Below, one piece after another: positions 31,737 to 59,889 of a DNA stretch of 64,000 nucleotides. The notes beneath the pieces are model-generated. The model worked only from the letters and a program-made list of their open reading frames with translations, ran no database searches and was not told the DNA's origin. The stretch's first letter is position 1. Each line of letters begins with the position of its first letter. A program made the translations under genes and the position numbers. The stretch is from Chiloscyllium plagiosum (lineage: Eukaryota), in assembly GCF_004010195.1 (NCBI RefSeq), contig NC_057740.1:20108405-20172404 (forward strand), in the 5' to 3' direction.

Positions 31737-33530
31737 ACTGTTTGTAGTGCCTAGGCAGTGCAGGCGAAGTAGATTAGCCAATGGAAATGTGGGGGTATGG
31801 GAATAAGGTACAGGACTAGATCTGGATGGGATCCTATTCAGCGAGTTGATGCAGAACTTGATGTGCCAAATGATCTCTTACCATGTTGTAGGGTTTCTAT
31901 GTAACTGCATTGTATTTGAAGTGTGATTAAAGAATTAAACTTTTTTGTTGTGGGTCTTCAAATAAGAGTGCAGCTGGCTCACCTTTCCTCAGCTGGTCAT
32001 AACATGTTGGCATCCTTGAGAAATCAAAATCCAACGCCATTACAATTAATGCCTCCAGATATGTAATAGAAGATGACACCAGAGGGCTGAAGATACATCT
32101 TAAGTGCCACAGAGGATCTGGTGGTGGCATCTCATAGTCCACCCCAGTCAGAACAGCTGTAACATGCTGTCCAATACTGCTCAGCAATGAGCTTTGAACA
32201 TGTAGGAGCAAGGAGGGGCAAAATACAGATCTTCTGAAGTCAACTTTAAGAAGTAGGAATGTAGGAAAGGTAATGGAATGAAGGAAACTGCACCACTGAG
32301 TGCTCATATTGCCATCTGAGGCATTTTTATTCATGTGGGAATCACCTAGTTTTCAGAAGTGGACCAATGTGAGCACCATTTGCAATAGCCACATGTTAAT
32401 CGGGTTGTTAGCAATTAATAATTCCCCCCTTGTGGGCAACCCCTGCTCCCTAACAAGAATCTTGCCTCAATGCCTGGAACTTTTGATAAAAGATAGTGAG
32501 CTGCTTCCAACATTGAGATAGTCCTCACTGGATTTCTCAAGTAATTCTGCCATGTTTCTCACCATAGCCCACATTGTCCAGACCCCTACAAGATTCAACC
32601 CTTTCTTTCTGTTCTCCAATTCCACCTTTGGATTGGCCTTTCAAATTCTAGCCATATTGAGATCATGCCATATTGGTCCTTATATCTCAACCAATGCCAT
32701 GCAATCCACTGCCAAAAGCAAACATGTAAACCCGCTCATTCTAGATGTTTTTAGGAAAACCACTGAAGCCATCAAAACAGGATGCTCTAAGAAAAGAATC
32801 TTTACTTTCTCTTGAACAAGAAACCGGTCTTGAGTTATAATCATTAAAACAGAAAAGATTGCATAAAATATCTGCTTCAAATGGTTCCATTTTATGAGAA
32901 ATGATAAATTCTAATTAATTAGAAAATAACTACAGTATAGTGCCTCACTTAATTTCTTAACCTCGTGTATTCTGAACTAAAGAAAAATACTAATGCCAGT
33001 TAAAATGGAAATGAACGTCTACATTAGAACACACCCATAAGTACATTATTGCTGAGACTAGGATACAAAGTCTTCTGTCCATTCTGTTTCACTTGAATTA
33101 TATAAAGTATTGCACAGTTTCAGTGGTAACAGGAAACATTATTTTATGCTTTTCACTTGTCTGACGACTGTTATATTTATAAATAGTCCATGTCTACGTC
33201 TAAAAGTTCCTTCATAACTAGAGAGACTGATTAGTCAGCTCATGGATATTACGGAACAGACAATATCAGACTGAAGAACTTTTGGGTGGGGAAGCTCTTT
33301 CTGTGGTCACTACAAAGGTTACACCTTTTACTACGTATTAAACCTATCTTTCTGTCAGTGAACAAAATAAGGTGTGGTTTTATTTGAGACGTCAGGCATA
33401 CCAAAACACTTCATAATTTGAAGATGTGATATATTTGATTTTAGCAAGGCTTCAATCACTACTGAACTGCTTTCTGTGAGAGAGGACATACTTGATTTCC
33501 TGCAATTAGCAAATTTCAACTTCTGGAAAA

Positions 33531-33600
33531 ATGAATTGTAAAAAGTTTAAATCAATCATGTTATTTTGGCATGTGATTGTGAGTAGCCTCTGTCTTTCAG
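33531..33600 (+). CDS. candidate first coding exon (signal peptide) of the mucin gene
   Basis: aaaATG..., 70 nt = MNCKKFKSIMLFWHVIVSSLCLS+G, then donor CAG|GTAAGA. Basic n-region plus hydrophobic h-region; ends in phase 1, matching all downstream PTS exons. Confidence 0.55.
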
Positions 33601-34424: not shown

Positions 34425-35955
34425 GTGGAGAATTACTAACATCACTGGAATAATAATCCAGAACCCAAGTCTAATGTTCTGGTGACATGGGTTTGAATCC
34501 CAACATGACAAATGGTTAATTTTGTAATCCATGAAAAGAAACTAGAATAAGAGGAAGTGTATAAAAACCCACCTGTCTCACTAATGTACTTGAAGGAAGG
34601 AATTCTGCCATTCTTACCAGACCTGACCTACATGTGACACCAGATGTAAAATAATCTGTTGGAATTCTATGAAGATGTAACTAGTAGAGTTGACAAGGTG
34701 GAGGCAGTCGATGTGGTGTATTTGGACTTTCAGAAAGTGTTTGACAAAGTCCCACATCAAAGATAATTGTGCAGTATTAAAGCACATGGGATTGGAGGAA
34801 GTGTATTGAGATGGATACAAAACTGGTTAGCAGAGAGGAAACAAAAAGTAGGAATTAATTGATCCTTGTCAAATTGGCAGGCAGTAACTAGTGGGGGTGC
34901 CACAGGGATTGGTGCTAGATCCCCAACTATTCACTATATATATATATATATATATATTAATGATTTGATGTGGGAACAAAATGTATCATCTCAATGTTTG
35001 CAAATGATACCAAGTTGGGTGGGAGGATGAACTGTGATGAGGATGCAGAGATCCTTCAGCATGATCTGGACAGATTGGGTGAGTGGGCAAATTAATGGCA
35101 GGTGCAGTATAATTTGGATAAATGTGACGTTATTCACTTTGGAAGCAAAAACAAGAAGGCAGATTAAGACCGGAATGGGTGTAAACTGGGAGATGGGAGT
35201 GTGCAGCAGGACCTGGGTGTCCTTGTGCAGCAATTGCTTAAGGTCATCATTCAGGTGTAGCAGGCAGTAAAGAAGATAAATGGTATGTTGGCCTTCATTG
35301 CGAGAATTTTTGAGTAAAGGAACGGGGATATGTTGTTGCAGTTACACAGGGCACTGGTGAGGCTTGGTCTCCTTTTTTGAGGAAAGATGCTCTTGTGCTT
35401 GAGGGAGCAGTTTACCAGATTGATTCCAGTCAGTGGGACTGACATATGAAGTGAGATTGACTAGATTAGGATAAAATTTGCTGGTTTTCAGATGAGTGAG
35501 GGGGGAATCTCATAGGGACTTATAAAATTCTAACAAGACAGGGTAAATGCAGGGAAGATGTTCCCAATGGTGCGTGTATCCAGAAATGGGATCACAGTCT
35601 GACAATTTGAAGTGGACCATTTAGGAGGGAGATGAGGAAACATTTCTTCACCCAAAGAGTGGTATGCCTGTGCAATTCATTACCACAGGAAGTAGTTGAT
35701 GCCAGAACATTGAATATATTCAAGAGGTGGCTAGATATAGCACTTGGGGCGAATGGGATCAAAGGTTATTGGGAGAAAGCAGGATTGGGTTATTGAGTTG
35801 AATGATTGGCCACGAACATGATGAATGGCAGAGTAGATTTGAAGGGCCAAATGGCCTCCTCCTGCTCCTATCTTCTATATTACATTGACTTTTAACTGCC
35901 CTCTGGACAACTAGGGATAACCAGTGATAATAAATTCCATGAATGAATTAAAAAC
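34425..35955 (+). mobile_element. SINE-like repeat (34425-34645, resumes ~35885-35955) interrupted by a CR1
   Basis: tRNA-like gggtttgaatccc head and cacctgtctcactaatg...catgtgacaccaga body; continues after the CR1 as ttgacttttaactgccctctg...atgaatgaattaaaaa. Confidence 0.55.
34650..35880 (+). mobile_element. CR1 LINE RT-3' fragment, decayed
   Basis: VDVVYLDFQKVFDKVPH, GVPQG, FANDTKLGG, RKHFFTQRVV motifs and CR1 3' UTR; internal (TA)n expansion at ~34935. Confidence 0.9.
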
Positions 35956-37809: not shown

Positions 37810-38600
37810 ACTGAAATCCAGTTGTATTGAACTTGGCTGCAGGGATTGTAATGGAGCTGCTTGTAGTTGTTGATTCTGTTGTACAGGTGGATGCAACAGT
37901 TAATGTTGAACTCAATACTCCAGTAGTGGCCACTGTACTTGCATTTGATGTTTCTGCTGTTGCAGAGTTGATGCACAGTTGTTGCATAGTTAATGGCATA
38001 ATTGAAACTTAAGGTCAATTCATATTAAGGTACACAAGTACATATTAGTTTACACAATGCATTTATGTACGGTCTGTCCTTGCTATTTTGTGGTTTTTGT
38101 TGAGCAGTGGAATAGTTAATGGTATATTTGAGACTCACATCAAATGTAATCAGATGGATGCAATTATGCATATTTTAGAAAGTGTACTTACCTGCCAGCT
38201 GTCCAAACTATTTTAAATTGCCCAGAATTTGATGTGTTATGTTAAAACTGAAGCAGAAAGGAGTTTGACATTTATGCTTCTCTCCTACATCACCACAGTC
38301 ATTAACATGAAAGTGGTAATGTTCTGAGTTTATCGTCTGGCAGTCACACTACTCGTTCTAGTGAATACATAACAGATAGAATGAACAGATAGAATTTTTC
38401 ACAGATAGTGACCAGTTGAAGTAGTGCCCTGTGTTGTTGAAACTGTGAATGATTCCACTGCTGATGTTGAGGGGGAGCTGCTTGCAGTTGTTTGTGCTGT
38501 TGAACCTGTTGCTCCTGGGAGTCGTTGCTGTAGTCACTGTCTCAGTTGTTGTCTGCTCTGGTAGTTGAGCTCAGTGACGTGACTGTGAAAGTGATTAATG
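37810..38600 (-). pseudogene. inverted, decayed copy of mucin PTS exons C (38582-38413) and A (37956-~37810)
   Basis: Reverse complement matches the array exons (ttcacag|TCACG...CTACTTCAACTG|gtca; ETSNASTVATTGVLSST). The exon C copy has a 2-nt deletion (in-frame TGA) and a 1-nt insertion; the exon A copy lacks its donor. Confidence 0.8.
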
Positions 38601-39049
38601 ACAGTTTTCAGACTACCCGGTGACTTGGAGGCAAATATTACAATTGTTCACCATTACGAATTGCTAAATTCTCTTTGTGCCAATGTACTAGAAAATTTGC
38701 AAGAACATAAATGTGTTAAAAACTGAAACAGGCCAAATGCATAATGAGCCACAAGCTTCAGCGCTCTGTCAGAATGGGTTAACAAAAATGCACCTGAAAT
38801 GTTTTCATAAATTTCTGACCTCACTCAGAATGGCTACAATGCACTGAAATCAAGGAAATGCTGAAGGTCCAGGGCAGACAGTTCCACACAAACCAAGATC
38901 TCATCACACAAAAGTTACTAATAAATAAAGTAATAAAGGATATACTGCTTTGAACCAACACTATCAAAAAAATCTGTAGCACCTAAGGAGATGTAGGTGG
39001 AAATGTTACCAATGAATGATTGACTAATTTGTCCAGGAAATCAGGTTAA

Positions 39050-39403: not shown

Positions 39404-42400
39404 CAGAAATATCAACAGCAAGTACTGAGACCACCACTGAAGTACCGAGTCCTACGTCAACAGCTGAATTAACAACTACAAGCAGCTCCACTACAACACC
39501 TGCAGCTGAATCCATGACAACCGAAACAACACAAGAACCTACAACAACTGGTGAGAATCCTAGTCCCATTGGCTGTAATGTATTGATTTCTAATGTTGAG
39601 AAATACATGTACAACAAACTCAATGAAGAAACAATAAATGATGTTCCCAGATTGTGGTAAATTTACAGAGATGTTAGTTGATTTACCATCTTCACATTCT
39701 CATTTTGATCTTTCCCGATGAAGTTTGGAAAGCAGCTTTACATCTCATTGTGAATAAATCAATGCAGTTTGAATATTGAAACACATTTCTGTGTATGGTT
39801 TTCCTTGTACACCTATCTGAATAGCATGCCCCACTTTCACTGCACCAACAGAAATATCAGCTGCAAGTACAGAGACAACCACTGCACTGGCAACCTCTTC
39901 AGCAACTTTTGCATCAACTACCACACCTGGTGCAACAAGCACCGTGACTTCCACTCCAGCATCGACCAGCATCTCAACATCACCGCTCACAACAAGTGGT
40001 GAGTTTGCAAAAAACAATTATCGCCAGTTCCACCTGATTGATTGCAATCCAGTGTAGCATCTGAAGGAATTCAGGAAGTTTTGAAAACATTTCTTACGCA
40101 TGTAATTTTAGATCTATGTCACTGCAGGTCTCAAGGGTACAGGTTGTTGCTCGTATATTTCACAAGATTCAATTTTTATATGTTTATCGTCCTGCCAAAT
40201 TTCACAAACCATGATACTAAAATAATACACCATATTATCAGATGGGTGAACATTTGCACCATTCGATTCCAAGTGGCCTGATAGCCTGACCAAACCTATT
40301 ACTTACTTTTCACAGTCACTCCAGAAACCTCAACCACCAGTGCAGAGACCACGACTGAGACAGTGACTACAACATCAACTCCAGCACCAACAAGTTCAAC
40401 AGCACAAACAACTGTGAGCAGCTCTGCTTCAACATCAGCAGTGGAATCGACAACAGCTTCAACAACACAGGGCTCTACTTCAACTGGTCAGTGGAAATAA
40501 AAAAATCCATATGTACATTAAATTTGGTTGCATTTAATACAAAACTGCATAAAGAGAAGGTGCTGGATTAAGTCAAAATATTACTGCATTTTTGTTCATA
40601 ATTATGAGAACGAAAGTGAGTTACATAAATTTTCTTCCAACATCCGTTTCAATGGAACATCATCCCACCATTAGATACCGGATCAATTAAAATAGCAAGG
40701 ACTACTCCAACCCCTGCAGCTGAATCCACGACAACCGAAACCACACAAGGACCTACAACTACTGGTGAGAATCCTTTTACCTTTGTGTTGTAATTTATTA
40801 ATATCTCAATTTGAGCAGTACTTGGTCAAAAACTCAATGAAGAAACAATTAATGTTGTTCCTTGATTTTAATAACTTTACCGGGACGCTTGTTGATTTGC
40901 CTGGTACCCATTCACATTTTAATCATTCCTGATGAAGTTTGGAAAGCAGCTCTACATCTCATTGTGAATAAATCATTGCAGTTTGTCAACCAAAACACAT
41001 TTCTGTGTATGGTTTCCCTTGTGCACCTATCTGAACCGCGTGTCTTACTTTTACTGCACCAACAGAAATATCAACTGCAAGTACAGAGACAACCACTGCA
41101 CTGGCAACATCTTCAGCAACTCTTGCATCAACTACCACACCTGGTGCAACAAGCACCGTGACTTCCACTCCAGCATCGACAAGCATCTCAACATCACCGC
41201 TCACGACCAGTGGTGAGTTTGCCATAAACATTATCGCCAGTTATACCTGATTGATAGATATCCAGTGTAGTAGCTGATGCAATTCAGAAAGTTTCGCAAA
41301 CATTTCTTCCGCTTCTACTTTTAGGTCTATGACCCTGCAGGTCTCAAGAGTACGGGTTGTTGCTGGTGCATCTCACAAGCTTCAATTTTTATATGTTTAT
41401 TGTCCTGCCAAATTTCACAAACTGTGGTAGTAAAAGAATATAGCACACTGTACAATGGGTGAACATTTGCACCATTCGATTCCAAGTGGCCTGATAGCCT
41501 GACTAAACCTATTACTTACTTTTCACAGTCACTCTCGAAACCTCAACCACCAGTGCAGAGACCACGACTGAGACAGTGACTACAACATCAACTCCAGAAC
41601 CAACAAGTTCAACAGCACAAACAACTGCAAGCAGCTCCGCTTCAACATCAGCAGTGGAATCGACAACAGCTTCAAACACACAGGACACGACTTCAACTGG
41701 TCAGTGAAAATAAAAAATTCCATATGTACATTAAATTTGATTGCATTCAATACAAAACTGCATAAAGAGAAGGTGGTGGATTAAGTCAAAATACCACTGC
41801 ATTTTTGTTCATAATTACGAGAACGAAAGTGAGTTAAATAAATTTTCTTTGAAACTTTATTGCTGGAACAGCACAGCAGGTCAGGCAGCATCCAGGGAAC
41901 AGGAGATTNNNNNNNNNNNNNNNNNNNNNNNNNNNNNNNNNNNNNNNNNNNNNNNNNNNNNNNNNNNNNNNNNNNNNNNNNNNNNNNNNNNNNNNNNNNN
42001 NNCCTGACCTGCTGTGCTGTTCCAGCAATAAAGTTTCAACTTTGATCTCCAGCATCTGCAGACCTCACTTTCTCCACATAAATTTTCTTCCCACTTCTGT
42101 TTCAATGGGACATCATTCCACCATTAGATACCGGATCAATTAGAATAGTGAGGACTTATTGCAGATAAAGGCAACGTGTAAATTAACACATATTTCAATA
42201 TATTAAGACAATGTGAATATAAGTTTCAATGATGCCATTAATTCCATTCACTGCAACTGCAGAAACATCAACTGCAAGTACAGTGACCACTACTGGAGTC
42301 CCAAGTTCTACGTCAATTGCTGCATCCACCAGTACAGCTGAATCAACAACGACAAGCAGTCCCACTACAACCCCTGCAGCTGAATCCACGACAATCGAAA

Positions 42401-45400
42401 CAACACAAGCGGCTCCAACAAGTGGTGAGAATCCTATTACTGTTGTGTTGTAATATATTCAGACCTCAATTTGAGCAGTAGTTGGTCAAAAACTCAATGA
42501 AAAAACAATTAATGTTGTTCCCTGATTTTAATAAATTTACCGGGACGCTAGTTGATTTGCCTGGTACACATTTTCATTTTGATCTTTCCTGACGAAGTTT
42601 GGAAAGCAGCTCTACATCTCATTGTGAATAAATCAATGTAGTTTGTACATCGAAACACATTTCTGTGTATGGTTTTCCTTGTGCACCTATCTGAATCGCA
42701 TGTCTTACTTTTACTGCACCAACAGAAACATCAACTGCAAGTACAGAGACAACCTCTCGAAACCTCAACCACCAGTGCAGAGACCACGACTGAGACAGTG
42801 ACTACAACATCAACTCCAGAACCAACAAGTTCAACAGCACAAACAACTGCAAGCAGCTCCGCTTCAATATCAGCAGTGGAATCGACAACAGCTTCAACAA
42901 CACAGGGCACTACTTCAACTGGTCAGTGGAAATAAAAATTCCATATGTACATTAAATTTGATTGCATTCAATACAAAACTGCATAAAGAGAAGGTGGTGG
43001 ATTAAGTCAAAATACCACTGCATTTTTGTTCATAATTACGAGAACGAAAGTGAGTTACATAAATTTTCTTCCCACTTCTGTTTCAATGGGACATCATCCC
43101 ACCATTAGATACCGGATCAATTAGAATAGTGAGGACATATTGCAGATAAAGGCAACGTGTAAATTAACACATATTTCAATATATTAAGACAATGTGAATG
43201 TAAGTTTCAATGATGCCATTAATTCCATTCACTGCAACTGCAGAAACATCAACTGCAAGGACAGTGACCACTACTGGAGTCCCAAGTTCTACGTCAATTG
43301 CTGCATCCACCAGTACAGCTGAATCAACAACTACAAGCAGTTCCACGACAACCCCTGCAGCTGAATCCACGACAATCGAAACAACACAAGCGGCTCCAAC
43401 AAGTGGTGAGAATCCTATTACTGTTGTGTTGTAATATATTCAGACCTCAATTTGAGCAGTAGTTGGTCAAAAACTCAATGAAAAAACAATTAATGTTGTT
43501 CCCTGATTTTAATAATTTTACCGGGACGCTAGTTGATTTGCCTGGTACACATTCTCATTTTGATCTTTCCTGATGAATTTTGGAAAGCAGCTCTACATCT
43601 CATTGTGAATAAATCAATGTAGTTTGTACATCGAAACACATTTCTGTGTATGGTTTTCCTTGTGCACCTCTCTGAATCGCATGTCTTACTTTTACTGCAC
43701 CAACAGAAACATCAACTGCAAGTACAGAGACAACCACTGCACTGGCAACCTCTTCATCAATTCTTGCATCAACTACCACATCTGGTGCAACAAGCACCGT
43801 GACTTCCACGACAGCATCGACAAGCATCTCAACATCACCGCTCACTACCAGTGGTGAGTTTGCAATATACAATTATCGACAGTAGCACCTGATTGATTCC
43901 AATCCAGTGTAGCATCTGAAGGTATTCAGAAAGTTTTGAAATCATTTCTTAAGCTTCTACTTTTAGATCTATGAAACTGCAGGGCTCAAGAGTACAGGTT
44001 GTTCCTGGTGCATTTCACAAGCTTCAATTTTTATACATTTATCGTCCTGCAAAATTTCACAAACCGTGGTACTGAAACAATATATCAAATTATAAGATGG
44101 GTGAACATTTGCACCATTCGATTTCGAGTGGCCTGATTGCCTGACATAACATACTACTTACTTTTCACAGTGACTCCAGAAACCTCAGCTACCAGTGCAG
44201 AGACCACGACTCAGACAGTGACGACAACATCAACTCCAGCACCAACAAGTTCAACAGCACAAACAACTGCGAGCAGCTCCCCTTCAACATCAGCAGTGGA
44301 ATCGACAACAGCTTCAACAACACAGGGCTCTACTTCAACTGGTCAGTGGGAATAAAAAATTCCATATGTACATTAAATTTGGTTGCATTTAATACAAAAC
44401 TGCATAAAGAGAAGGTGCTGGATTAAGTCAAAATATTACTGCATTTTTGTTCATAATTATGAGAACGAAAGTGAGTTACATAAATTTTCTTCCAACTTCC
44501 GTTTCAATGGGACATCATCCCACCATTAGATACCGGATCAATTAAAATAGCAAGGACTTATTGCAGATAAAGGCAATGTGTAAATTAACATATCTTTAAA
44601 TATATTAAGACAATTTGAATGTAAGTTTCAATGATGCCATTAATTCCATTCACTGCAACAGCTGAAACATCAACTGCAAGTACAGTGACCACTACTGGAG
44701 TACCGAGTTCTACGTCAACTGCTGCATCCACCAGTACAGCTGAATCAACAACTACAAGCAGCTCCACTCCAACCCCTGCAGCTGAATCCACGACAACCGA
44801 AACCACACAAGGACCTACAACTACTGGTGAGAATCCTTTTACCTTTGTGTTGTAATTTATTAATATCTCAATTTGAGCAGTACTTGGTCAACTCTTGCAT
44901 CAACTACCACATCTGGTGCAACAAGGAACAGGAGAATCGACGTTTCGGGCATAAGCCCTTCATAAGCCCTTATTAATTTATTAATATCTCAATTTGAGCA
45001 GTACTTGGTCAAAAACTCAATGAAGAAACAATAAATGTTGTTCCCAGACTCTAGTAATTTTACTCAGACGTTAATTGATTTGCCAGCTTCACATTCACAG
45101 ATTGATCTTTCCCGATGAAGTTTGGAAAGCAGCTTTACATCTCATTGTGAATAAATCAATGCATTTTGCAAATCAAAACAAATTTCTACGTATGGTTTTC
45201 CTTGTACACCTATCTGAATCGCATGTCTTACTTTCACTACACCAACAGAAACATCAACTGCAAGTACAGAGACAACCACTGCACTGGCAACCTCTTCATC
45301 AACTCTTGCATCAACTACCACACCTGGTGCAACAAGCACCGTGACTTCCACTCCAGCATCGACAAGCATCTCAACATCACCGCTCACGACCAGTGGTGAG

Positions 45401-48400
45401 TTTGCCATAAACATTATCGCCAGTTATACCTGATTGATAGAAATCCAGAGTAGTAGCTGATGCTATTCAGAAAGTTTAGCAAACATTTCTTCCGCTTCTA
45501 CTTTTATGTCTATGACCCTGCAGGTCTCAAGAGTACGGGTAGTTGCTGGTGCATTTCACAAGCTTCAACTTTTATATGTTTATTGTCCTGCACAATTTCA
45601 CAAACTGTGGTAATAAAAGAATATAGCACACTGTATAATGGGTGAACATTTGCACCATTTGATTCCGAGTGGCCTGATTGCCTGACTAAACCTATTTCTT
45701 ACTTTTCACAGTCACTCTCGAAACCTCAACCACCAGTGCAGAGACCACGACTGAGACAGTGACTACAACATCAACTCCAGAACCAACAAGTTCAACAGCA
45801 CAAACAACTGCAAGCAGATTGACTTCAACATCAGCAGTGGAATCGACAACAGCTCCACCAACACAGGGCACTACTTCAACTGGTCAGTGGAAATAAAAAA
45901 TTCCATATGTTCATTAAATTTGGTTACATTCAATAGAAAACTGCATAATGAGAAGTTACTGGATTAAGTCAAAATATTACTGCATATTTGTTCATAATTA
46001 TGAGAACGAAATTGAGTTACATAAATTTTCTTCCCACTTCTGTTTCAATGAGACATCACCCCACCATTATATATTGAATCAATTAGAATAGCGAGGACTT
46101 ATCGCATATAAAGGCAATGTGTAAATTAATACATAACTAAAAATATTAATATAAATTGAATGTAAGTTTCAATGATGCCATTAATTCCATTCACTGCAAC
46201 TGCAGAAACATCAACAGCAAGTACAGTGACCACTACTGGAGTACCGAGTTCTACGACAACTGCTGCATCCACCAGTACAGCTGAATCAACAACTACAAGC
46301 AGCTCCACTACAAGCCCTGCAGCTGAATCCAAGACAACCGAAAGCACACAAGGATTGACAACTACTGGTGAGAATCCTTTTACCTTTGTGTTGTAATTTA
46401 TTAGTATCTCAATTTGAGCAGTACTTGGTCAAAAACTCAATGAAGAAATAAAAAATGTTGTTCCCAGACTCTAGTAATTTTACTCAGACGTTAATTGATT
46501 TGCCAGCTTCACATTCTCATTTGGATCTTTCCTGATGAAGTTTGGAAAGCAGCTTTACATGTCATTTTCAATAGATCAATGCAGTTTGTACATCGAAACA
46601 CATTTCTATGTATGGTTTTCCTTGTACACCAATCTGAATCACATGTCTTACTTTCACTGCACCAACAGAAACATCAACTGCAAGTACAGAGACAACCACT
46701 GTACTGGCAACATCTTCACCAACTCTTGCATCAACTACCACATCTGGTGCAACAAGCACCGTGACTTCCACTCCAGCATCGACAAGCATCTCAACATCAC
46801 CGCTCACGACCAGTGGTGAGTTTGCAATAATCATTATCGCCTGTTCCACCTGTTTGATGGAAATCCAGTGTAGAAGCTGATGGAATTCAGAAAGTTTATT
46901 AAACATTTCTTCCGCTTCTACTTTTAGGTCTGGGACCCTGCAGGTCTCAAGAGTATGGGTAGTTGCTGGTGCATTTCACAAGCTTCAATTTTTATATGTT
47001 TATTGTACTGCACAATTTCACAAACTGTGGTAGCAAAAGAATATAGCACACTGTACAATGGGTGAATATTTGCACTATTCGATTCCAAGTGGCCTGATAG
47101 CCTGACTAAACCTATTACTTACTTTTCACAGTCACTCTCGAAACCTCAACCACCAGTGCAGAGACCACGACTGAAACAGTAACTACAACATCAACTCCAG
47201 AACCAACAAGTTCAACAGCACAAACAACTGCAAGCAGCTCCGCTTCAACATCAGCAGTGGAATCGACAACAGCTTCAACAACACAGAGCTCTACTTCAAC
47301 TGGTCAGTGGAAATAAAAAATTCCATATGTACATTAAATTTGATTGCATTCAATACAAAACTGCCTAAAGAGGAGGTGGTGGATTCAGTCAAAATATTAC
47401 TACATTTTTGTTCATAATTATGAGAACGAAAGTGAGTTACATAAATTTTCTTCCCCCATCTGTTTCAGTGGGACATCATTCCACCATTAGATACCAGATC
47501 AATTAGAATAGCGAGGACTCATTGCAGATAAAGGCAATGTGTAAATTAACACATCTTTAAATATATTAAGACAATGTGAATGTAAGTTTCAATGATGCCA
47601 TTAATTCCATTCACTGCAACAGCTGAAACATCAACTGCAAGTACAGTGACCACCACTGGAGTACCGAGTTCTACGTCAACTGCTGCGTCCACCAGTACAG
47701 CTGAATCAACAACTATAAGCAGTTCCACTACAACCCCTACAGCTGAATCCACGACAACCGAAACAACACAAGGACCGACAACAACTGGTGAGAATCTTAT
47801 TACCTTTGTGTTGTAATATATTAAGACTTCAATTTGAGCAGTACTTGGTCAAAAACTCAATGAAGAAACAATTAATGTTGTTCCTTGATTTTAATAACTT
47901 TGCCGGGACGCTTGTTGATTTGCCTGGTACATATTCTCATTTTAATCATTCCTGATGAAGTTTGGAAAGCAGCTCTACATCTCATTGTGAATAAATCATT
48001 GTAGTTTGTCAACCAAAACACATTTCTGTGTGTGGTTTCCCTTGTGCACCTATCTGAATCGCGTGTCTTACTTTTACTGCACCAACAGAAACATCAACTG
48101 CAAGTACAGAGACAACCACTGCACTGGCAATCTCTTCAGCAACTCTTGCATCAACTACCACACCTGGTGCAACAAGCACCGTGACTTCCACTCCAGCATC
48201 GACAAGCATCTCAACATCACCGCTCACGACCTGATTGATAGAAATCCAGTGTAGTAGCTGATGCAATTCAGAAAGTTTAGCAAACATTTCTTCCGCTTCT
48301 ACTTTTAGGTCTATGACCCTGCAGGTCTCAAGACTACGGGGAGTTGCTGGTGCATTTCAGAAGCTTCAATTTTTATATGTTTATTGTCCTGCCAAATTTC

Positions 48401-51400
48401 ACAAACTGTGGTAATAAAAGAATATAGCACACTATACAATGGGTGAACATTTGCACCATTTGATTCCGAGTGGCCTGATTGCCTGACTAAACCTATTTCT
48501 TACTTTTCACAGTCACTCTCGAAACCTCAACCACCAGTGCAGAGACCACGACTGAGACAGTGACTACAACATCAACTCCAGAACCAACAAGTTCAGCAGC
48601 ACAAACAACTGCAAGCAGCTCGGCTTCAACATCAGCAGTGGAATCGACAACAGCTNNNNNNNNNNNNNNNNNNNNNNNNNNNNNNNNNNNNNNNNNNNNN
48701 NNNNNNNNNNNNNNNNNNNNNNNNNNNNNNNNNNNNNNNNNNNNNNNNNNNNNNNNNNNNNNNNNNNNNNNNNNNNNNNNNNNNNNNNNNNNNNNNNNNN
48801 NNNNNNNNNNNNNNNNNNNNNNNNNNNNNNNNNNNNNNNNNNNNNNNNNNNNNNNNNNNNNNNNNNNNNNNNNNNNNNNNNNNNNNNNNNNNNNNNNNNN
48901 NNNNNNNNNNNNNNNNNNNNNNNNNNNNNNNNNNNNNNNNNNNNNNNNNNNNNNNNNNNNNNNNNNNNNNNNNNNNNNNNNNNNNNNNNNNNNNNNNNNN
49001 NNNNNNNNNNNNNNNNNNNNNNNNNNNNNNNNNNNNNNNNNNNNNNNNNNNNNNNNNNNNNNNNNNNNNNNNNNNNNNNNNNNNNNNNNNNNNNNNNNNN
49101 NNNNNNNNNNNNNNNNNNNNNNNNNNNNNNNNNNNNNNNNNNNNNNNNNNNNNNNNNNNNNNNNNNNNNNNNNNNNNNNNNNNNNNNNNNNNNNNNNNNN
49201 NNNNNNNNNNNNNNNNNNNNNNNNNNNNNNNNNNNNNNNNNNNNNNNNNNNNNNNNNNNNNNNNNNNNNNNNNNNNNNNNNNNNNNNNNNNNNNNNNNNN
49301 NNNNNNNNNNNNNNNNNNNNNNNNNNNNNNNNNNNNNNNNNNNNNNNNNNNNNNNNNNNNNNNNNNNNNNNNNNNNNNNNNNNNNNNNNNNNNNNNNNNN
49401 NNNNNNNNNNNNNNNNNNNNNNNNNNNNNNNNNNNNNNNNNNNNNNNNNNNNNNNNNNNNNNNNNNNNNNNNNNNNNNNNNNNNNNNNNNNNNNNNNNNN
49501 NNNNNNNNNNNNNNNNNNNNNNNNNNNNNNNNNNNNNNNNNNNNNNNNNNNNNNNNNNNNNNNNNNNNNNNNNNNNNNNNNNNNNNNNNNNNNNNNNTGT
49601 TGTTCCCAGACTCTAGTAATTTTACTCAGACGTTAATTGATTTGCCAGCTTCACATTCACAGATTGATCTTTCCCGATGAAGTTTGGAAAGCAGCTTTAC
49701 ATCTCATTGTGAATAAATCAATGCAGTTTGTAAATCAAAACACATTTCTGTGTAAGGTTTTCCTTGTACACCTATCTGAATCTCATGTCCCACTTTCACT
49801 ACACCAACAGAAACATCAGCTGCAAGTACAGAGACAACCATTGCACTGGCAACCTCTTCATCAACTCTTGCATCAACTCCCACACCTGGTCCAACAAGCA
49901 CTGTGACTTCCACTCCAGCATCGACAAGCATCTCAACATCACCGCTCACTACCAGTGGTGAGTTTGCCATCAACATTATCGCCAGTACCCCCTGATCGAT
50001 GGAAATCCAGTGTAGTTGCTGATGGAATTCAGAAAGCTTAGCATATATTTCTTCCGCTTCTACTTTTAGGTCTATGACCCTGCAGGTCTCAAGAGTATGG
50101 GTAGTTGCTGGTGATTTCACAAGCTTCAATTTTTATATGTTTATTGTCCTGCACAATTTCACAAACTGTGGTAATAAAAGAATATAGCACACTGTATAAT
50201 GGGTGAACATTTGCATCATTCGATTCCAAGTGGCCTGATAGTCTGACAAAACCTATTTCTTACTTTTCACAGTCACTCTCGAAACCTCAACCACCAGTGC
50301 AGAGACCACGACTGAGACAGTGACTACAACATCAACTCCAGAACCAACAAGTTCAACAGCACAAACAACTGCAAGCAGCTCCGCTTCAACATCAGCAGTG
50401 GAATCGACAACAGCTTCAACAACACAGGGCTCTACTATAACTGGTCAGTGGAAATAAAAAAATCCATATGTACATTAAATTTGATTGCATTCAATACAAA
50501 ACTGCATAAAGAGAAGGTGGTGGATTAAGTCAAAATACTACAGCATTTTTGTTCATAATTATGAGAACGAAAGTGAGTTACATAAATTTTCTTCCCACTT
50601 CTTTTTCAATGGGACATCATCCCACCATTAGATCAATTAGATTAGCGAGGACTTATTGCAGATAAAGGCAATGTATAAATTAACACATATTTAAATATAT
50701 TAAGACAATTTGAATGTAAGTTTCAATGATGCCATTAATTCCATTCACTGCAACAGCAGAAACATCAACAGCAAGTACAGTGACCACTACTGGAGTACCG
50801 AGTTCTACGTCAACTGCTGCGGCCACCAGTACAGCTGAATCAACAACTACAAGCAGCTCCACTACAACCCCTGCAGCTGAATCCACGACAACTGAAACAA
50901 CACAAGGAGCGACAACAAGTGGTGAGAATCCTATTACCTTTGTGTTGTAATACATTAAGACCTCAATTTGAGCAGTACTTGATCAATGAAGAAACAATAA
51001 ATGCTGTTCTCTGATCTTAGTCATTTTACTGAGATGTTAGTTGATTTGCCAGGTTCACATTCTCAATTTGATCTTTCCCGATGAAGTTTGGAAAGCAGCT
51101 CTACATCTCATTGTGAATAAATCAATGTAGTTTGTAAATCAAAACACATTTCTGTGTATGGTTTTCCTTGTGCACCTATCTGAATCGTATGTCTTACTTT
51201 CACTGCACCAACAGAAATATCAACTGCAAGTACAGAGACAACCACTGCACTGGCAACCTCTTCATCAACTCTTGCATCAACTACCACACCTGATACAACA
51301 AGCACCGTGACTTCCACTCCAGCATCGACCATCATCTCAACATCACCGCTCACTACAAGTGGTGAGTTTGCAATAATCAATTATCGCCAGTTCCACCTGA

Positions 51401-52333
51401 TTAATTCCAATCCAGTGTAGCATCTGAAGGTATTCAGAAAGTTTTAAAACATTTCTTAAGCTTCTACTTTTAGGTCTATGAAACTGCAGGTCTCAAGCGT
51501 TCAGGTTGTTGCTGGTGCATTTCACAAGCTTCAATTTTTATACATTTATCGTCCTGCAAAATTTCACAAACCGTGGTACTGAAAGGATATATCAAATTAT
51601 AAGATGGGTGAACATTTACACCATTCGATTCCGAGTGGCCTGATTGCCTGACATAACGTATTACTTACTTTTCACAGTGACTCCAGAAATCTCAACCACC
51701 AGTGCAGAGACAACAACTGAGACAGTGACGACAACATCAACTCCAGCACCAACAAGTTCAACAGCACAAACAACTGCAAGCAGCTCGGCTTCAACATCAG
51801 CAGTGGAATCGACAACAGCTTCAACCACACAGGGCACTACTTCAACTGGTCAGTGGAAATAAAAAATTCCATATGTTCATTAAATTTGGTTACATTCAAT
51901 AGAAACCTGCATAATGAGAAGTTGCTGGATTAAGTCAAAATATTACTGCACTTTTGTTCATAATTATGAGAACGAAAGTGAGTTACATAAATTTTCTTCC
52001 CACTTCTGTTACAATGAGATATCATCCCACCATTATATACCAGATAAATTAGAATAGCGAGGACTTATCGCATATAAAGGCAATGTGTAAACTCATACAT
52101 TACTAAAAATATTAATACAAATCGAATGTAAGTTCCAATTATGCCATTAATTACATTCACTGCTACAGCAGAAACATCAACAGCAAGTACAGTGACCACT
52201 ATTGGAGTACCGAGTTCTACGTCAACTGCTGCATCCACCAGTACAGCTGAATCAACAACTACAAGCAGCTCCACTACAACCCCTGCAGCTGAATCCACGA
52301 CAACCGAAACAACACAAGGACCTACAACAACTG
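39404..52333 (+). CDS. mucin Ser/Thr-rich (PTS) domain encoded by ~25 small phase-1/phase-1 exons
   Basis: Exon A (ETSTASTVTTTGVPSST...TTQGPTTT; AG..G|gtgaga): 39404/7-39550, 42263-42424, 43244-43405, 44662-44826, 46206-46367, 47623-47787, 50757/60-50921, 52169/72-52333. Exon B (147 nt; ETSTASTETTTALATSSSTLAS...SPLTTS; G|gtgagt): 39852-39998, 41066-41212, 43707-43853, 45249-45395, 46669-46815, 49811-49957, 51215-51361. Exon C (171 nt; VTPETSTTSAETTTETV...QGSTST; G|gtcagt): 40316-40486, 41529-41699, 44171-44341, 45712-45882, 47132-47302, 48513-gap, 50273-50443, 51678-51848. All intact copies are multiples of 3 and stop-free. Confidence 0.88.
41850..42075. mobile_element. palindromic Penelope pLTR insertion in mucin intron
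   Basis: ttattgctggaacagcacagcaggtcagg and its inverted copy cctgacctgctgtgctgttccagcaataa flank a gap; target duplication ataaattttctt on both sides. Confidence 0.75.
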
Positions 52334-52373
52334 GTGAGAATCCTTTTACCTTTGTGTTGTAATTTATTAATAT

Positions 52374-52468
52374 GCTGAAAATGTGTTGCAGGAAAAGCGC
52401 AGCAGGTCAGGCAGCATCCAAGGAACAGGAGAATCGACGTTTCGGGCATAAGCCCTTCATACGCCCTT
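52374..52468 (-). mobile_element. Penelope pLTR fragment in mucin intron
   Basis: ggaaaagcgcagcaggtcaggcagcatccaaggaacaggagaatcgacgtttcgggcataagcccttca flanked by duplicated taatttattaatat. Confidence 0.75.
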
Positions 52469-52736
52469 ATTAATTTATTAATATCTCAATTTGAGCAGTA
52501 CTTGGTCAAAACCTCAATGAAGAAACAATCACTGTTTTACCCAGACTCTAGTAATTTTACTCAGACGTTAATTGATTTGCCAGCTTCACATTCACAGATT
52601 GATCTTTCCCGATGAAGTTTGGAAAGCAGCTTTACATCTCATTGTGAATAACTCAATGCAGGTTGTAAATCAAAACACATTTCTGTGTATGGTTTTCCTT
52701 GTTCACCTATCTGAATCGTATGTCCCACTTTCACTG

Positions 52737-53236
52737 NNNNNNNNNNNNNNNNNNNNNNNNNNNNNNNNNNNNNNNNNNNNNNNNNNNNNNNNNNNNNNNN
52801 NNNNNNNNNNNNNNNNNNNNNNNNNNNNNNNNNNNNNNNNNNNNNNNNNNNNNNNNNNNNNNNNNNNNNNNNNNNNNNNNNNNNNNNNNNNNNNNNNNNN
52901 NNNNNNNNNNNNNNNNNNNNNNNNNNNNNNNNNNNNNNNNNNNNNNNNNNNNNNNNNNNNNNNNNNNNNNNNNNNNNNNNNNNNNNNNNNNNNNNNNNNN
53001 NNNNNNNNNNNNNNNNNNNNNNNNNNNNNNNNNNNNNNNNNNNNNNNNNNNNNNNNNNNNNNNNNNNNNNNNNNNNNNNNNNNNNNNNNNNNNNNNNNNN
53101 NNNNNNNNNNNNNNNNNNNNNNNNNNNNNNNNNNNNNNNNNNNNNNNNNNNNNNNNNNNNNNNNNNNNNNNNNNNNNNNNNNNNNNNNNNNNNNNNNNNN
53201 NNNNNNNNNNNNNNNNNNNNNNNNNNNNNNNNNNNN
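52737..53236. other. assembly gap of exactly 500 N (probable unknown-size scaffold join)
   Basis: Round size; the other gaps are 323, 94 and 942 N. Confidence 0.8.
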
Positions 53237-53483
53237 TTATGGTGCTGACATACTATCTGATTGTTAACAAAATACAGAGAATCTAGGCTTAATTCCACAA
53301 CCTTCACAAATGCAATTTTGAGCTCTGAGAGGTGCTGCATAAATTATATTCATTGTCAGCAAATAAATTGCATGGTCCAACATGGACCCTGTTCTTCTGA
53401 CCAACTAATGTTAGGGAACTTAAATTGTGACTTTGCACATATTCCCTTTCATTACAAGTGGTGCTTGGTATAATGCATTAGAA

Positions 53484-53648
53484 CTGAAAATGTGTTGCTG
53501 AAAAAGTGCAGCAGGTCAGGCAGCATCCAAGGAGCAGGAGAATCGACATTTCGGGCATGAGCTCTTCTTCCTGACGGGCTGTGCTTTTCCAGTAACACGA
53601 TTTTGGCTCTGATCTCCAGCATCTGCAGTCCTCACTTTCTACTCGAAG
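53484..53648. mobile_element. head-to-head Penelope pLTR insertion, same site as 55986-56150
   Basis: Inverted halves gctgaaaaagtgcagc.../gctgtgcttttccag; flanked by taatgcatt(a/t)gaac duplication; absent from units 3-5. Confidence 0.75.
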
Positions 53649-53737
53649 ATAATGCATTTGAACACTGACTACCCATTCATCAATATATAGCATGTGAGAC
53701 AAACAAAGAGTAGGCCGAATATTGACTGGATACCTAC

Positions 53738-54932
53738 CATTTACATGCAGGCTGTCTTTGTCTAATGTGTATGGCCCCAACATCGAAAAATTGTCGGTCT
53801 TATTTTCAACCACATGATACACAAGCACTCTATTGATGTCCTGAATGGTGGAATCATTTTTGAAGGAACACATTGCCGTCACTGTGCTTCTGTCACCATC
53901 GACCATGCTGCAAAATATTGAAAGAAGATTAGCATCAAAGGGAGGAACTTTGAGCCAAAGTAGTCACCATATCACCAATGGAGGGCAATGTTTAGAGGCA
54001 AATCATTTGTCAGCAAAAGAAAACTCTATGCAAGCAACATTTCATTACACATCCATTCACTGTAATAACAACAACTTTTTCCTTCTAGATAACAGTTAAT
54101 TTCTCATTCACTGTAATCTTCAAGATTCAAGTGCAAGATCAGTGTCAATATTACATATAAATTATCATATTTCTTACCTGAGTGATTGAAATCTGCAACT
54201 GGAGAACGTAGCATTTATGCTGCTGTTTTTGAACAGGTCATTGAGCTACAGGGAATAAAATCAAACATAATTACATTACAAAAAAGTAATGTGCAACTAA
54301 AATTTCTCTTTCAAAAAGATTTGTTGAATTATCTCACCTTGTTTGCAATCATGCCTGTCTGATTGGAAGAGTTTGATTCAATGTCTTGGAATGATGGACG
54401 ACTTATAATAAATGTCAGATTATAGTCAGTAAGTATGAGTTCCTCTGTTGGAGTTACAAGTGGAACAACAGCTGTGGAAAAAGAGGAAAACAGTTTATCT
54501 CACACACACAAATACACTGAGGATGCATTGGAAGAACAAGAGCCTATTGCTGAAATAGTGACCAGATTTACGAGGAACAATGGGAGATCCCATGAAAATT
54601 GGTTTAGAGAGTTAATTATGATTCAATCTAGGCCTGCTGTATTGATGACAAGAAAGATGTCAAGTATTAGCCCTGAACTTGTGCAAGCTTACCAGCTTCT
54701 GCATAAGTGCTGACAATTGCAACACACTAACTTTAAACAATACTCATTTACCGAATCAACTATAATATAAACAAGGCAAATTCAAAATAATAAGGTTACT
54801 CTGACTGAATCATCCATTAAATCACAACGTGATCTTGGCAGAATTGAAATAAATGCGGACGGGTAAAAATATTCCAAAAAATAAAGAAAACGAGTTTCCA
54901 CTCACTGGTTACAAGAAGTGCCTCATGGTAAT
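53738..54932 (-). CDS. MUC16: MUC16/CA125-like SEA repeat, unit 1
   Basis: Exons 54932-54906 (27 nt, DYHEALLVT), 54471-54338 (134 nt, TVVPLVTPTEELILTDYNLTFIISRPSFQDIESNSSNQTGMIANK), 54245-54178 (68 nt, LNDLFKNSSINATFSSCRFQSLS), 53907-53738 (170 nt, MVDGDRSTVTAMCSF...LGPYTLDKDSLHVN). All GT-AG, phases 1-1-0-2-1. The symbol means MUC16-like; orthology is unproven. Confidence 0.85.
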
Positions 54933-55395
54933 CTGGAACAAAAAGAGCATCGTGTTGTCAGACAAGTCTATCACAATGTGTCTCATTAAATAAATGTGAA
55001 TGAAATGATGTAATACGATAAAGTAGCCAATCCGATCAATGCCCAGTCTCTGAGAAGACATTTCAGATGAATGTGAGAACGGTCAATGTAAATAACATCA
55101 AGTGAGGAATTTACAGATATTATCATAAATCTGTTATTTTGGGGACACAATTATTTTGAAGTACCACATTATGTTGCCAAATTTCAAATGAGCCAAACTT
55201 TAATTGGCATGTTGTTGAAATGTAATTCTTCATCTGTAATGTTTCTTGCGACCTCCTGTGTGATGTGCAATACGTCATATCATGGTTGTTGGCAGATATT
55301 GCTCTAAATATTACAGCAAATTCCAAACAAATTGAGGACTGAGTTTAACATGTAAATAGCTTCATGTATTTTGAGTGTGCAGGTGTCAAACGATA

Positions 55396-55553
55396 GTAGG
55401 AGAAAGTGAGGACTGCAGATGCTGGAGATCAGAGTTGAAAATGTATTGCTGGAAAAGCGCAGCAGGTCAGGCAGCATCCAAGGAGCAGGAGAATCGACTT
55501 TTCGGACTTTAGCCCGATTCCTGCTGCGCTTTTACAGCAACACATTTTCAGCT
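55396..55553. mobile_element. head-to-head Penelope pLTR insertion
   Basis: ggagaaagtgaggactgcagatgctggag...gctggaaaagcgcagcagg and inverted cctgctgcgcttttacagcaacacattttcagct. Confidence 0.75.
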
Positions 55554-55985
55554 GTTAAAAATAGTGCCAAACTCAAAGAGGAAATGACTGAGAATTTAAT
55601 ACATTTTTCACAATAGTCCCTTTTGCCTTCTTTCTTTCAAGAGGGAAAAGAAATGGAATAAGTTTGAGAGAGATCCAACAATTTCTAAACTCAATTCCAG
55701 AATTATGATTCGGTTTGGGATGCAATACATGGTACACTCCAGTGTAAAAGGAATTTATGGTGCTGACATACTATCTGATTGTTAACAGAATACAGAGAAT
55801 CTCGGCTTAATTCCACAACCTTCACAAATGCAATTTTGAGCTCCAAGAGCTGCTGCATAAATTATATTCATTGTCAGCAAATAAATTGCATGGTCCAACA
55901 TGGATCCTGTTCTTAGGGAACTTAAATTGTGACTTTGCGCATATTCCCTTTCATTACAAGTGGTGCTTGGTATAATGCATTAGAA

Positions 55986-56150
55986 CTGAAAATGTGTTGC
56001 TGGAAAAGTGCAGCAGGTCAGGCAGCATCCAAGGAGCAGGAGAATCGATGTTTCGGGCATGAGCCCTTTTTCCTGACCGGCTGTGCTTTTCCAGCACACA
56101 TTTTCAGCTCTGATCTCCAGCATCTGCAGTCCTCACTTTCTCCTAGAATA
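55986..56150. mobile_element. head-to-head Penelope pLTR insertion (paralog of 53484-53648)
   Basis: Same structure and same target duplication as in unit 1. Confidence 0.75.
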
Positions 56151-56238
56151 TAATGCATTTGAACACTGACTAACCATTCGTCAATATATAGCATGTGAGA
56201 CAAACAAAGAGTAGGCCGAATATTGACTGGATACCTAC

Positions 56239-57425
56239 CATTTACATGCAGGCTGTCTATGTCCAATGTGTATGGCCCCAACATCGAAAAATTGTCGGTC
56301 TTGTTTTCAAACACATGATACACAAGCACTCTATCGATGTCCTGAATGGTGGAATCATTTTTGAAGGAACACATTGCCGTCACTGTGCTTCTGTCACCAT
56401 CGACCATGCTGCAAAATATTGAAAGAAGATTAGCATCAAAGGGAGGAACTTTGATCCAAAGTAGTCACCATATCATCAATGGAGGGCAATGTTTAGAGGC
56501 ATGTCATTTGTCAGCAAAGGAAAACTCTGTGCAAGCAACATTTCATTACACATCCATTCACTGTAATAACAACAACTTCTTCCTTCTAGATAACAGTTAA
56601 TTTCTCATTCACTGTAATCTTCAAGATTCAAGTGCAAGATCAGTGTCAATATTACGTATAAATTATAATATTTCTTACCTGAGTGATTGAAATCTGCAAC
56701 TGGAGAATGTTGCATTTATGCTGCTGTTTTTGAACAGGTCATTGAGCTACAGGGAATAAAATCAAACATATTTAATAAAAGAAAATAGAAACGTGGAACA
56801 AAAATTAGTCCTTCAAAAAGATTTGTTGAATTATCTCACCTTGTTTGCAATCATGCCTGTCTGATTGGAAGAGTTTGATTCAATGTCTTGAAATGATGGA
56901 CGACTTATAATAAATGTCAGATTGTAATCAATAAGTATGAGTTCCTCTGTTGGAGTTACAAGTGGAACAACAGCTGTGGAAAAAGAGGAAAACAGTTTAT
57001 CTCATACACAGAAATACACTGAGAATGTATTGGAAGAAGAAGAGCCTATTGCTGAAATAGTGGCCAGATTTACCAGGAACAACGGGAGAGCCCATGAAAT
57101 TTGATTTCAAGAGTTGATTATTATTCAATCTAAATCTGCTCTATTGATGACAAGAATGGTGTCAAGCTTTCAGCCTGAATTTGTGCAATCTTACCATCTA
57201 TCGCGTAAGTGCTAACAATTGCAAATCGCTAACTTTAAACAATATTCATGTATCTATTCACGAATTAGTCAATCAGTATCAAGCCCAAGATAATCTGGAT
57301 ACTCTGACTGAATCATTCATTAAGTCGCAACATAACATTGGCAGAATTGAGATAAATGTGGACAAGCAGACAATATTCCCAAAAACAATTCTACTCACTG
57401 GTTACTAGACGTGCCTCATGGTAAT
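56239..57425 (-). CDS. MUC16: MUC16-like SEA repeat, unit 2
   Basis: Exons 57425-57399, 56973-56840, 56746-56679, 56408-56239; ends LGPYTLDIDSLHVN. Confidence 0.85.
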
Positions 57426-58405
57426 CTAGAACAAAAAGAACACTGTGGTGTCAAGCAAGGCTATCACAATGTGTCTCACTAAATAAATGTGCAAGAAATT
57501 ATGTAAGACGTAAATAAATGTCAGATTCTGATCAATGCCCAGACTCCGTGATGAATGTCAGAACAGACAATGTAAATAACATCCAGTGAAGAATTTTCAG
57601 AAATTTTTGTGAAAACTGGGTCTTGTGCAATGTTGGGACCACATTTAATTTCAAGAACTATATCACATTTATAAATGTCAAATGAGCCTAAGATTTAATT
57701 GGTATGTTGTAGATGTGTAATTATTAGTCATTAACGTTTACTGCTGTCTCCTGTCAGAAATGTGCAATGTATGATAGCTTTGACAAGAGATTGCTGTAAC
57801 TATGACAGCAAAGTCCCAACAAATTGTGGACTGAGTGTAACATGTAAATACCTTCATGTATCCTGTGTGTGCAGATGTTAAAAATAATGCCAAACTCAAA
57901 GATGAATTGATTCAGAATCTCATCCATTTTATACATTAGTGTCTTTTTTATTTCAAGGGGCCAAAGAAATGGAGTGAGTTGTCTGAGCCACTTTTGAAAG
58001 ACATCAACAAATCTCTAAATTCAATTCCAGAATTATGATTCATTCTTGGATGCGATAGATGGTAGAATCCAACGTAAAAAGATTTTATGCTGCTCAAATA
58101 TTGTCACTTTATTAACACAATACAGATATTCTTAGCATAATCCCACAATCTGCATGAATGGAATTTTTAACTCAGAGACATATTGCATAAATAAAATGCT
58201 TTGTCAGCCAACAAATTCCATGGTCACCATAGACTCTGTCCTTTTGACCAAAATATGTTGGAGAATTTGAATTGTGAATTTTCACATGCTCCCTTAATTT
58301 GCAAGTAGCTCATTGGATAATGTATTAGAACACTGTCTACCTATTCCTCAATACATAGCATGTGAGATAAACAAAGAGTAGGCCAAATATTGACTGGATA
58401 CCTAC

Positions 58406-59620: not shown

Positions 59621-59889
59621 CTGGAACAAAAATAACATCATGTTGTCAAACAAGGCTATCACAGTGTGTCTTACTAAATGTGCAAGAAATGAGGTAAGAC
59701 GTTAATGGCAGTAAATCTGACTCCGAGAAGGCCTTTCAGATGAATGAGAGAACAGACAATGTAAATAACATCAAGTGAGGAATTTTCAGACATTTTTGTG
59801 AAAGCTGTTCTTTGTGCAACGTTGGGACCACATTTAATTTCAAGAACATATCACATTGACAAATGTCAAATGAGTCAAACAGTTAACTA

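Follow-up and report, generated by a model that had tools for sequence, protein, structure and literature searches.

A 64,000-nucleotide (nt) window of the Chiloscyllium plagiosum genome (NCBI RefSeq assembly GCF_004010195.1, contig NC_057740.1, forward-strand positions 20,108,405 to 20,172,404; coordinates below are window positions) contains a tandem array of short serine/threonine-rich exons between 39404 and 52333. This array probably encodes the N-terminal stalk, enriched for proline, threonine and serine (PTS), of the second of two MUC16-like transmembrane mucin genes arranged in tandem on the plus strand. The assignment draws on the likeness of the repeats to a shark mucin-16-like protein and on the position at which the upstream gene ends. 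It would supply the probable missing N-terminus of a shark MUC16-like gene, place two such genes side by side, and flag a likely scaffolding error.

An array of symmetric exons

The exons of the array were located by scanning for segments that run from AG to GT with a threonine/serine-rich phase-1 frame, their edges being set by the conserved donors. When the whole window is scanned, clusters of such segments are confined to the plus strand between 39.3 and 52.4 kilobases (kb). The array holds 26 exon-derived segments: 22 intact exons, three damaged copies and one copy cut by a gap. The intact exons consist of eight of type A (147, 162 or 165 nt), seven of type B (147 nt) and seven of type C (171 nt), together 3,519 nt or 1,173 codons. 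Each has AG and GT ends, a length that is a multiple of three and a phase-1 frame without a stop; in the other frames, stops appear in 22/22 exons at offset 0 and in 15/22 at offset 1. Serine and threonine make up 58-69% of the encoded residues and proline 2-10%. A long N-terminal serine/threonine(/proline)-rich domain, a trait of MUC16-like transmembrane mucins, is present in the array. As predicted from the splice sites, the repeat units lie in separate symmetric exons of the chicken Muc13 type.

The exons follow in the order A-B-C with introns of about 300 nt, such that a trimer with its introns spans 1.4 kb and its coding part 480-483 nt, or 160-161 amino acids (aa). A reading made earlier from the sequence alone had described three exon types of 162/165, 147 and 171 nt that recur with their introns, all phase 1-1 and stop-free, in about ten units of some 160 aa of T/S-rich sequence. 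The types, their repetition and the size and composition of the unit are confirmed in 39404-52333, with the addition that proline is low. The repeat number is about nine visible units, and gaps of N at 41909-42002, 48656-49597 and 52737-53236 may conceal more. The stated A length holds for every intact A exon except the first, and the phase and open frame hold for 22 of the 26 segments, the others being the three damaged copies and the one cut by a gap.

The first cassette, A0, occupies 39404-39550 (147 nt, or 144 nt from a second AG 3 bases on). The other intact A exons are found at 42263-42424, 43244-43405 and 46206-46367 (162 nt each), at 44662-44826 and 47623-47787 (165 nt each), and at 50757-50921 and 52169-52333 (165 nt each, or 162 nt from the second AG). 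Intact B exons lie at 39852-39998, 41066-41212, 43707-43853, 45249-45395, 46669-46815, 49811-49957 and 51215-51361, and intact C exons at 40316-40486, 41529-41699, 44171-44341, 45712-45882, 47132-47302, 50273-50443 and 51678-51848. All are on the plus strand, as are the imperfect segments. The A copy at 40696-40764 is truncated by a deletion of about 200 nt that took its acceptor and 5' part and left a weak in-frame AG. A 196-nt fusion of B and C at 42726-42921 has a frameshift and a stop when entered through the B acceptor; it also contains internal in-frame AGs that would start exons at 42742, 42781 and 42799. The B copy at 48089-48230 is without its donor, about 41 nt having been deleted between two ACC triplets, and read-through stops at once. 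The C exon at 48513-48655 is open as far as it is visible before the 942-N gap. Downstream of the last A exon, the intron extends to a B-type acceptor region at the final gap. Throughout the array the donors are canonical, and purines break up the pyrimidine tracts of the A and B acceptors; in three of the A copies the acceptor AG is doubled in tandem. Peptides of the three exon types gave no match in Pfam, and the array was not picked up by Tandem Repeats Finder at a longest period of 500.

Two MUC16-like genes apparently in tandem

The upstream gene, designated paralog 1, can be followed by its end. Positions 1207-1299 on the plus strand encode its last coding exon, with cytoplasmic tail and stop, and the translation is identical at 29 of 30 residues to the C-terminus of Chiloscyllium punctatum GCC37309.1 (P0003). 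Identity to two other mucin-16-like models, P0022 and P0031, is 14/30 and 13/30, respectively. Since the tail of GCC37309.1 is found here, paralog 1 ends at the start of the window.

Long relatives were sought, and likeness was judged by ungapped identity against 500 composition-preserving shuffles. The first 1,150 residues of a Mustelus asterias mucin-16-like protein (P0031) match A at 34/54, B at 28/48 and C at 30/56 residues, values reached by none of the 500 shuffles in each case. The repeat period of this protein is 158-162 aa, as compared to 160-161 aa in the array. In P0031 the repeats lead into SEA units, after which come a membrane segment and a tail; the Pfam list of this protein comprises SEA and two further accessions. 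A second protein, P0103, has the same design, including SEA and membrane domains, and its start matches a read-through of the first acceptor of the array at 12/20 residues, which is an indirect hint that its repeats are encoded by separate exons. The proposal that the array forms a PTS-type mucin domain is supported by the serine/threonine-rich exons and by the likeness to the N-terminus of P0031. The higher-order exon trimer seems to be common to different shark orders.

A tree was built from the C-termini of 16 out of 223 proteins, chosen as having full C-termini. It places P0031 and the C. punctatum protein P0022 in one group, to which neither GCC37309.1 nor two ray models belong; within that group some branches are weak. 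Among elasmobranch MUC16-like models (P0003, P0007, P0022, P0023, P0031), at least two clades with different tails can be recognized, and both occur in C. punctatum. In C. plagiosum, members of the two clades apparently lie in tandem, the one neighbour recognized for the gene of the array being the other MUC16-like gene. Because paralog 1 ends at 1299 and the repeats match the other clade, the array is assigned to the second gene, paralog 2, which may be either the orthologue of P0022 or a sister gene.

A putative first coding exon for paralog 2 lies at 33531-33600 on the plus strand. It encodes a 23-codon signal peptide with a basic start and a hydrophobic core, and ends in a phase-1 GTAAGA donor. 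Between 1300 and 39350, it is the sole hydrophobic one of four candidates running from an ATG to a phase-1 donor (9-residue hydropathy 2.4, the others at most 0.8). It resembles the start of the SEA protein P0138 with the second-best score among the 223 proteins. A TATA-like motif at 33099-33106 precedes the putative start codon by about 430 nt. Paralog 1 thus ends at 1299, and paralog 2 probably begins at 33531 and continues across the array into the gap. The signal exon would splice to A0 and then through the cassettes, and the product would be a serine/threonine-rich chain of 1,170 aa or more. In keeping with what is known of mucins, this chain would carry O-linked glycans of the N-acetylgalactosamine type and form an extended stalk at the epithelial surface, raised over SEA domains in tandem and a membrane anchor whose exons would lie past the assembly gap.

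Several results weigh against this assignment. The putative signal exon shows no significant likeness to the ray model P0023, with 9% of shuffles as good. P0022 has periods of 54 and 163 aa, yet it resembles A, B and C only weakly (0, 3 and 6 of 500 shuffles, respectively); four of seven T/S-rich MUC16-like regions tested (P0020, P0021, P0025 and P0027) showed no likeness above shuffles, and that of P0028 is marginal (16-56 of 500). Within Mustelus, the B-type repeats are distinct, while A and C are inseparable by identity, copies in the C position scoring higher with A. P0031, P0103 and P0022 are predicted models and were compared as proteins. A protein search with a C exon returned no significant hit among 538 candidates, in a setting where low complexity makes the search weak. 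Lastly, neither a C-terminus of paralog 2 (membrane segment and tail) with a match of its own nor SEA exons belonging to the array gene, which is cut at the gap, were found within the window.

Splicing and the length of the stalk

The sequence-only reading had proposed that any exon or combination can be skipped in frame and that stalk length could be tuned combinatorially by alternative splicing as well as by unit copy number. The first part stands, as any of the 22 intact exons can be dropped in frame. The second part is not borne out in the form given. Tandem duplication of exons in frame requires symmetric phase, and for this reason the symmetry is no evidence of regulated splicing. In addition, splice-site sequences barely vary among the copies of a given type, which argues against copy-specific control of splicing. 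Since A, B and C are homologous and alike in composition, different combinations would alter the length of the stalk rather than its chemistry.

As a rival explanation, the idea holds that regulated or extensive alternative splicing of the cassettes adjusts the length of the stalk tissue by tissue or cell by cell, in the manner of CD45 or frog FIM-C.1; it is considered rather unlikely. Apart from skippability (22/22), the purine-interrupted A and B acceptors and the tandem AGs would favor it. The fusion exon and the donor-less B are damaged, and so must be skipped or use cryptic sites if the allele is functional. Set against these features are the forced symmetry, the near-equal splice sites with their canonical donors, and the short introns of about 300 nt. 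Isoforms in the family add a further hint. A sawfish mucin-16-like gene is represented by twelve isoform models (P0007-P0018) of four lengths, 3440, 3567, 3694 and 3821 aa, that differ in steps of exactly 127 aa, or one SEA unit. These steps may point to unit skipping in the family, or could be an annotation artefact; they concern paralog 1 and another region of the protein, and may stem from mis-mapped reads in near-identical repeats. Precedents exist in CD45 (PMC6170634), in FIM-C.1 (PMC7177656) and in a single in-frame PTS deletion of chicken MUC2 (PMC3549977). For the last of these, a broad search led to only one characterised event.

On the evidence at hand, some leaky skipping of cassettes is likely and a regulated splicing code is possible. 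Stalk length would be set mainly by genomic copy number, and exon symmetry would let the gene survive the gain, loss or damage of cassettes with no need for a regulated combinatorial code.

CD45, which has three regulated mucin-like exons, offers a yardstick for the physical reach of the stalk, with the proviso that denser mucins would be longer than a scaling based on it. In CD45 (PTPRC), alternative splicing takes the O-glycosylated stalk from 41 to 202 residues and from about 22 to 40 nm (PMC6170634). By this scale (161 extra residues for about 18 nm), each cassette would contribute about 6 nm and the visible array at least 130 nm. Unlike the homogenised tandem array of the shark, the CD45 exons are unique, regulated and attached to a phosphatase.

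The minus-strand SEA block and the assembly gap

Downstream of the array, a gap of exactly 500 N at 52737-53236 is a probable scaffold join that cuts off the gene of the array. Exact, round gaps of 500 N usually mark scaffolding joins. Past the gap, five tandem MUC16-type SEA units of paralog 1 run on the minus strand (53738-64000), the first being cut by the window end. Each unit consists of exons of 27, 134, 68 and 170 nt and is phase 1-1 as a whole. The block is opposite in orientation to both flanking genes. For these exons, PDB matches at E < 1e-4 were MUC16 entries only, among the matches listed (3 of 4), and the best database matches were mucin-16-like proteins of Chiloscyllium; in Pfam, the one SEA exon tested gave only sub-threshold SEA matches. 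At 46-55 of 56 residues to paralog-1 models versus 24-31 of 56 to paralog-2 models, the units belong with paralog 1. The last unit on the minus strand corresponds to residues 1-56 of XP_072449712.1 (55/56), a protein that continues with further SEA units, and these later units were not found below 53706 in the window. Thus, the block at 53237-64000 is probably a misplaced, inverted contig of paralog 1. Two smaller features were noted in the block: database models include the 27-nt phase 1-1 micro-exon in some SEA units and omit it in others, and one SEA exon has an AAG acceptor at 58939-58945 on the minus strand where the other four copies have TAG.

Alternatively, the arrangement across the gap might be real, whether as convergent genes or as a true inversion, or the array might encode a mucin of its own that lacks SEA domains and is either secreted or a short membrane protein. 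That no 3' end of the gene is visible is compatible with such a reading, and inverted degenerate cassettes at 37821-38582, joined to the array without a gap, show that inversions have happened here. The reading is nevertheless improbable: the later SEA units of XP_072449712.1 are absent below 53706, and the closest repeat relatives bear SEA and membrane domains.

A first reading of the window had the array splice into the SEA units across the gap. It was dropped, as the last exon of paralog 1 lies at 1207-1299 and the repeats match the other clade. A variant of it, in which the array belongs to paralog 1 and only the contig is flipped, such that the array splices to the adjacent minus-strand SEA exons, appears very improbable. 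While the SEA units do lie just across the gap in a compatible phase 1, and the Chiloscyllium paralog-1 models begin without a signal peptide, the end of paralog 1 is upstream, repeats of the A-B-C kind are found in models of the other clade, and the paralog-1 models P0023 (ray) and P0133 each begin with a signal peptide of their own and lack repeats of this kind.

Coding constraint on the cassettes

To gauge whether the cassettes are coding exons, the numbers of variants expected in 471 exon columns were derived from the substitution rates of 841 intron columns. A0, being of another length, and the damaged exons were left out of these counts and of the ratios of nonsynonymous to synonymous substitution (dN/dS), and the rates exclude two introns that carry large inserts. 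Replacement variants number 52 against 109.8 expected, silent variants 32 against 43.8, and stop variants none against 5.0. Pairwise dN/dS is 0.47 for A, 0.81 for B and 0.59 for C. A comparison of indels in exons and introns among units, as suggested with the sequence-only reading, gave seven small indels of a length not divisible by three in the intron alignments and none in equal-length intact exons, gaps at alignment ends excluded.

Some observations temper this picture. Variants were counted as distinct alleles per column among related copies and are not independent events; the ratio for B is near 0.8; three larger deletions did strike exons; and three damaged cassettes in nine units could signal decay. 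The direction is clear in spite of the non-independent counts, and the cassettes are under coding constraint.

That the array is a decaying pseudogene segment, or mostly an artefact of assembling a collapsed repeat, is very improbable. In its favor, three cassettes are damaged, three gaps and, near 44890-44970, a chimeric insert are present, and dead copies lie inverted close by. Against it stand the depletion of replacement changes and stops, a repeat period common to another shark order, and a divergence between copies of 2-9% for exons and 5-19% for introns, by which they are not collapsed duplicates.

Origin and turnover of the array

Exons A, B and C can be aligned with one another, with the acceptor region and the donor included, and therefore derive from one exon. 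A single ancestral phase 1-1 exon of about 165 nt probably triplicated into A, B and C, after which unequal crossing-over would have multiplied the 1.4-kb trimer together with its introns. Two groups can be recognized among the B-C introns, which differ by about 5-9% within a group and 13-19% between groups, the first unit being about 13% from its own group. The closest pairs of introns belong to non-adjacent units, which fits duplication of multi-unit blocks by unequal crossing-over as the inferred mode.

Relics of the array are found upstream. A decayed, inverted part-unit at 37821-38741 on the minus strand consists of C then A with intron sequence; it is 74-86% identical to its counterparts and connected to the array without a gap. 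Within it, a degenerate A copy (37821-37965) is 82-86% identical to A exons and diverged at the donor end, and a degenerate C copy of 170 nt (38413-38582) is frameshifted.

A chimeric insert occupies intronic positions 44889-44973, where 37 nt identical to the interior of a B exon (46720-46756) are fused to the tail of a short interspersed element. The insert sits between duplicated intron sequence and may have arisen either by template switching or as an assembly chimera. A fuller copy of the same element, with a short target duplication, is present at about 52370-52470.

Relation to other mucins

The likeness to the MUC16/CA125 family, as represented by mouse and chicken Muc16 and by shark models, comprises a putative signal peptide and a long N-terminal PTS domain followed, in the homologue, by SEA domains in tandem, then a membrane segment with a short tail. 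Multiple tandem SEA domains are named as distinctive of MUC16 by Lang et al. 2006 (PMC1552070). In mouse Muc16, exon 3 is very large and skipping it would shift the frame (PMC2650410). By comparison, more than 22 symmetric exons, each about 160 nt long, make up the shark PTS domain. A search of openly licensed papers and preprints found no description of shark MUC16 gene structure among the papers listed. PMC4948705 and PMC10707392 yielded nothing of relevance, and neither MUC19 exon structure nor long-read work on MUC16 contributed further information.

Neither the design nor the splicing idea is new. Lang et al. 2006 report that in the PTS domain of chicken Muc13 each repeat has an exon to itself, mention zebrafish too, consider a multi-exon PTS domain as a possibly ancestral vertebrate design, and propose that length is controlled by alternative splicing (PMC1552070). 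Both are thus already published, while their occurrence in the MUC16 lineage was not found described among the papers listed. Chicken Muc13 resembles the shark array in building the PTS domain of a SEA-type transmembrane mucin from tandem exons; it has a single 20-aa repeat type, whereas the shark array is a trimer of three diverged exons of 49-57 aa in another mucin family and lineage. In chicken MUC2, repeats are spread over many exons (exons 32-44), with one in-frame deletion of 165 aa by splicing (PMC3549977). Unlike the shark protein, MUC2 is gel-forming, with CysD domains and 69-aa repeats, and its splice event used internal sites.

The integumentary mucins (FIMs) of Xenopus have cassette-encoded repeats, and a similarity to them had been suggested for the array. 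The homologue is a MUC16-like transmembrane mucin and not of the gel-forming frog type. FIM-B.1 and FIM-C.1 are secreted and gel-forming with trefoil or other cysteine-rich modules, and variation by splicing was shown in FIM-C.1. High polymorphism of FIM-C.1 is attributed to alternative splicing in a paper that cites Hauser and Hoffmann 1992 (PMC7177656).

With the present findings, the multi-exon PTS design found in Muc13, MUC2 and the frog mucins reaches the MUC16 lineage and the cartilaginous fishes, in agreement with the idea, put forward in 2006, that a split PTS domain is the ancestral form. More speculatively, sharks might have retained an ancestral, fully modular MUC16 built of phase 1-1 parts throughout, both in the stalk cassettes (the A-B-C trimer, in at least two shark orders) and in the SEA units, such that splicing would give a spread of stalk heights per allele in steps of about 55 residues and buffer damaged cassettes; the giant, unskippable PTS exon of mammals would then be derived. 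This broader scenario is offered tentatively, and we consider it doubtful as a whole. As the copies of the array, unlike those of most arrays, differ by 2-9%, long reads can name each exon, and the old idea that splicing controls mucin length becomes directly testable here.

Other elements in the window

A 29-nt G-rich minisatellite with more than 45 copies extends over 19040-21094, broken by a short element and a gap. Fragments resembling those of mobile elements occur at 8700-9170 on the plus strand, 10235-12770 on the minus strand and 34600-35870 on the plus strand; we take these to read like DNA-transposon transposase and the endonuclease/reverse transcriptase of a long interspersed element.

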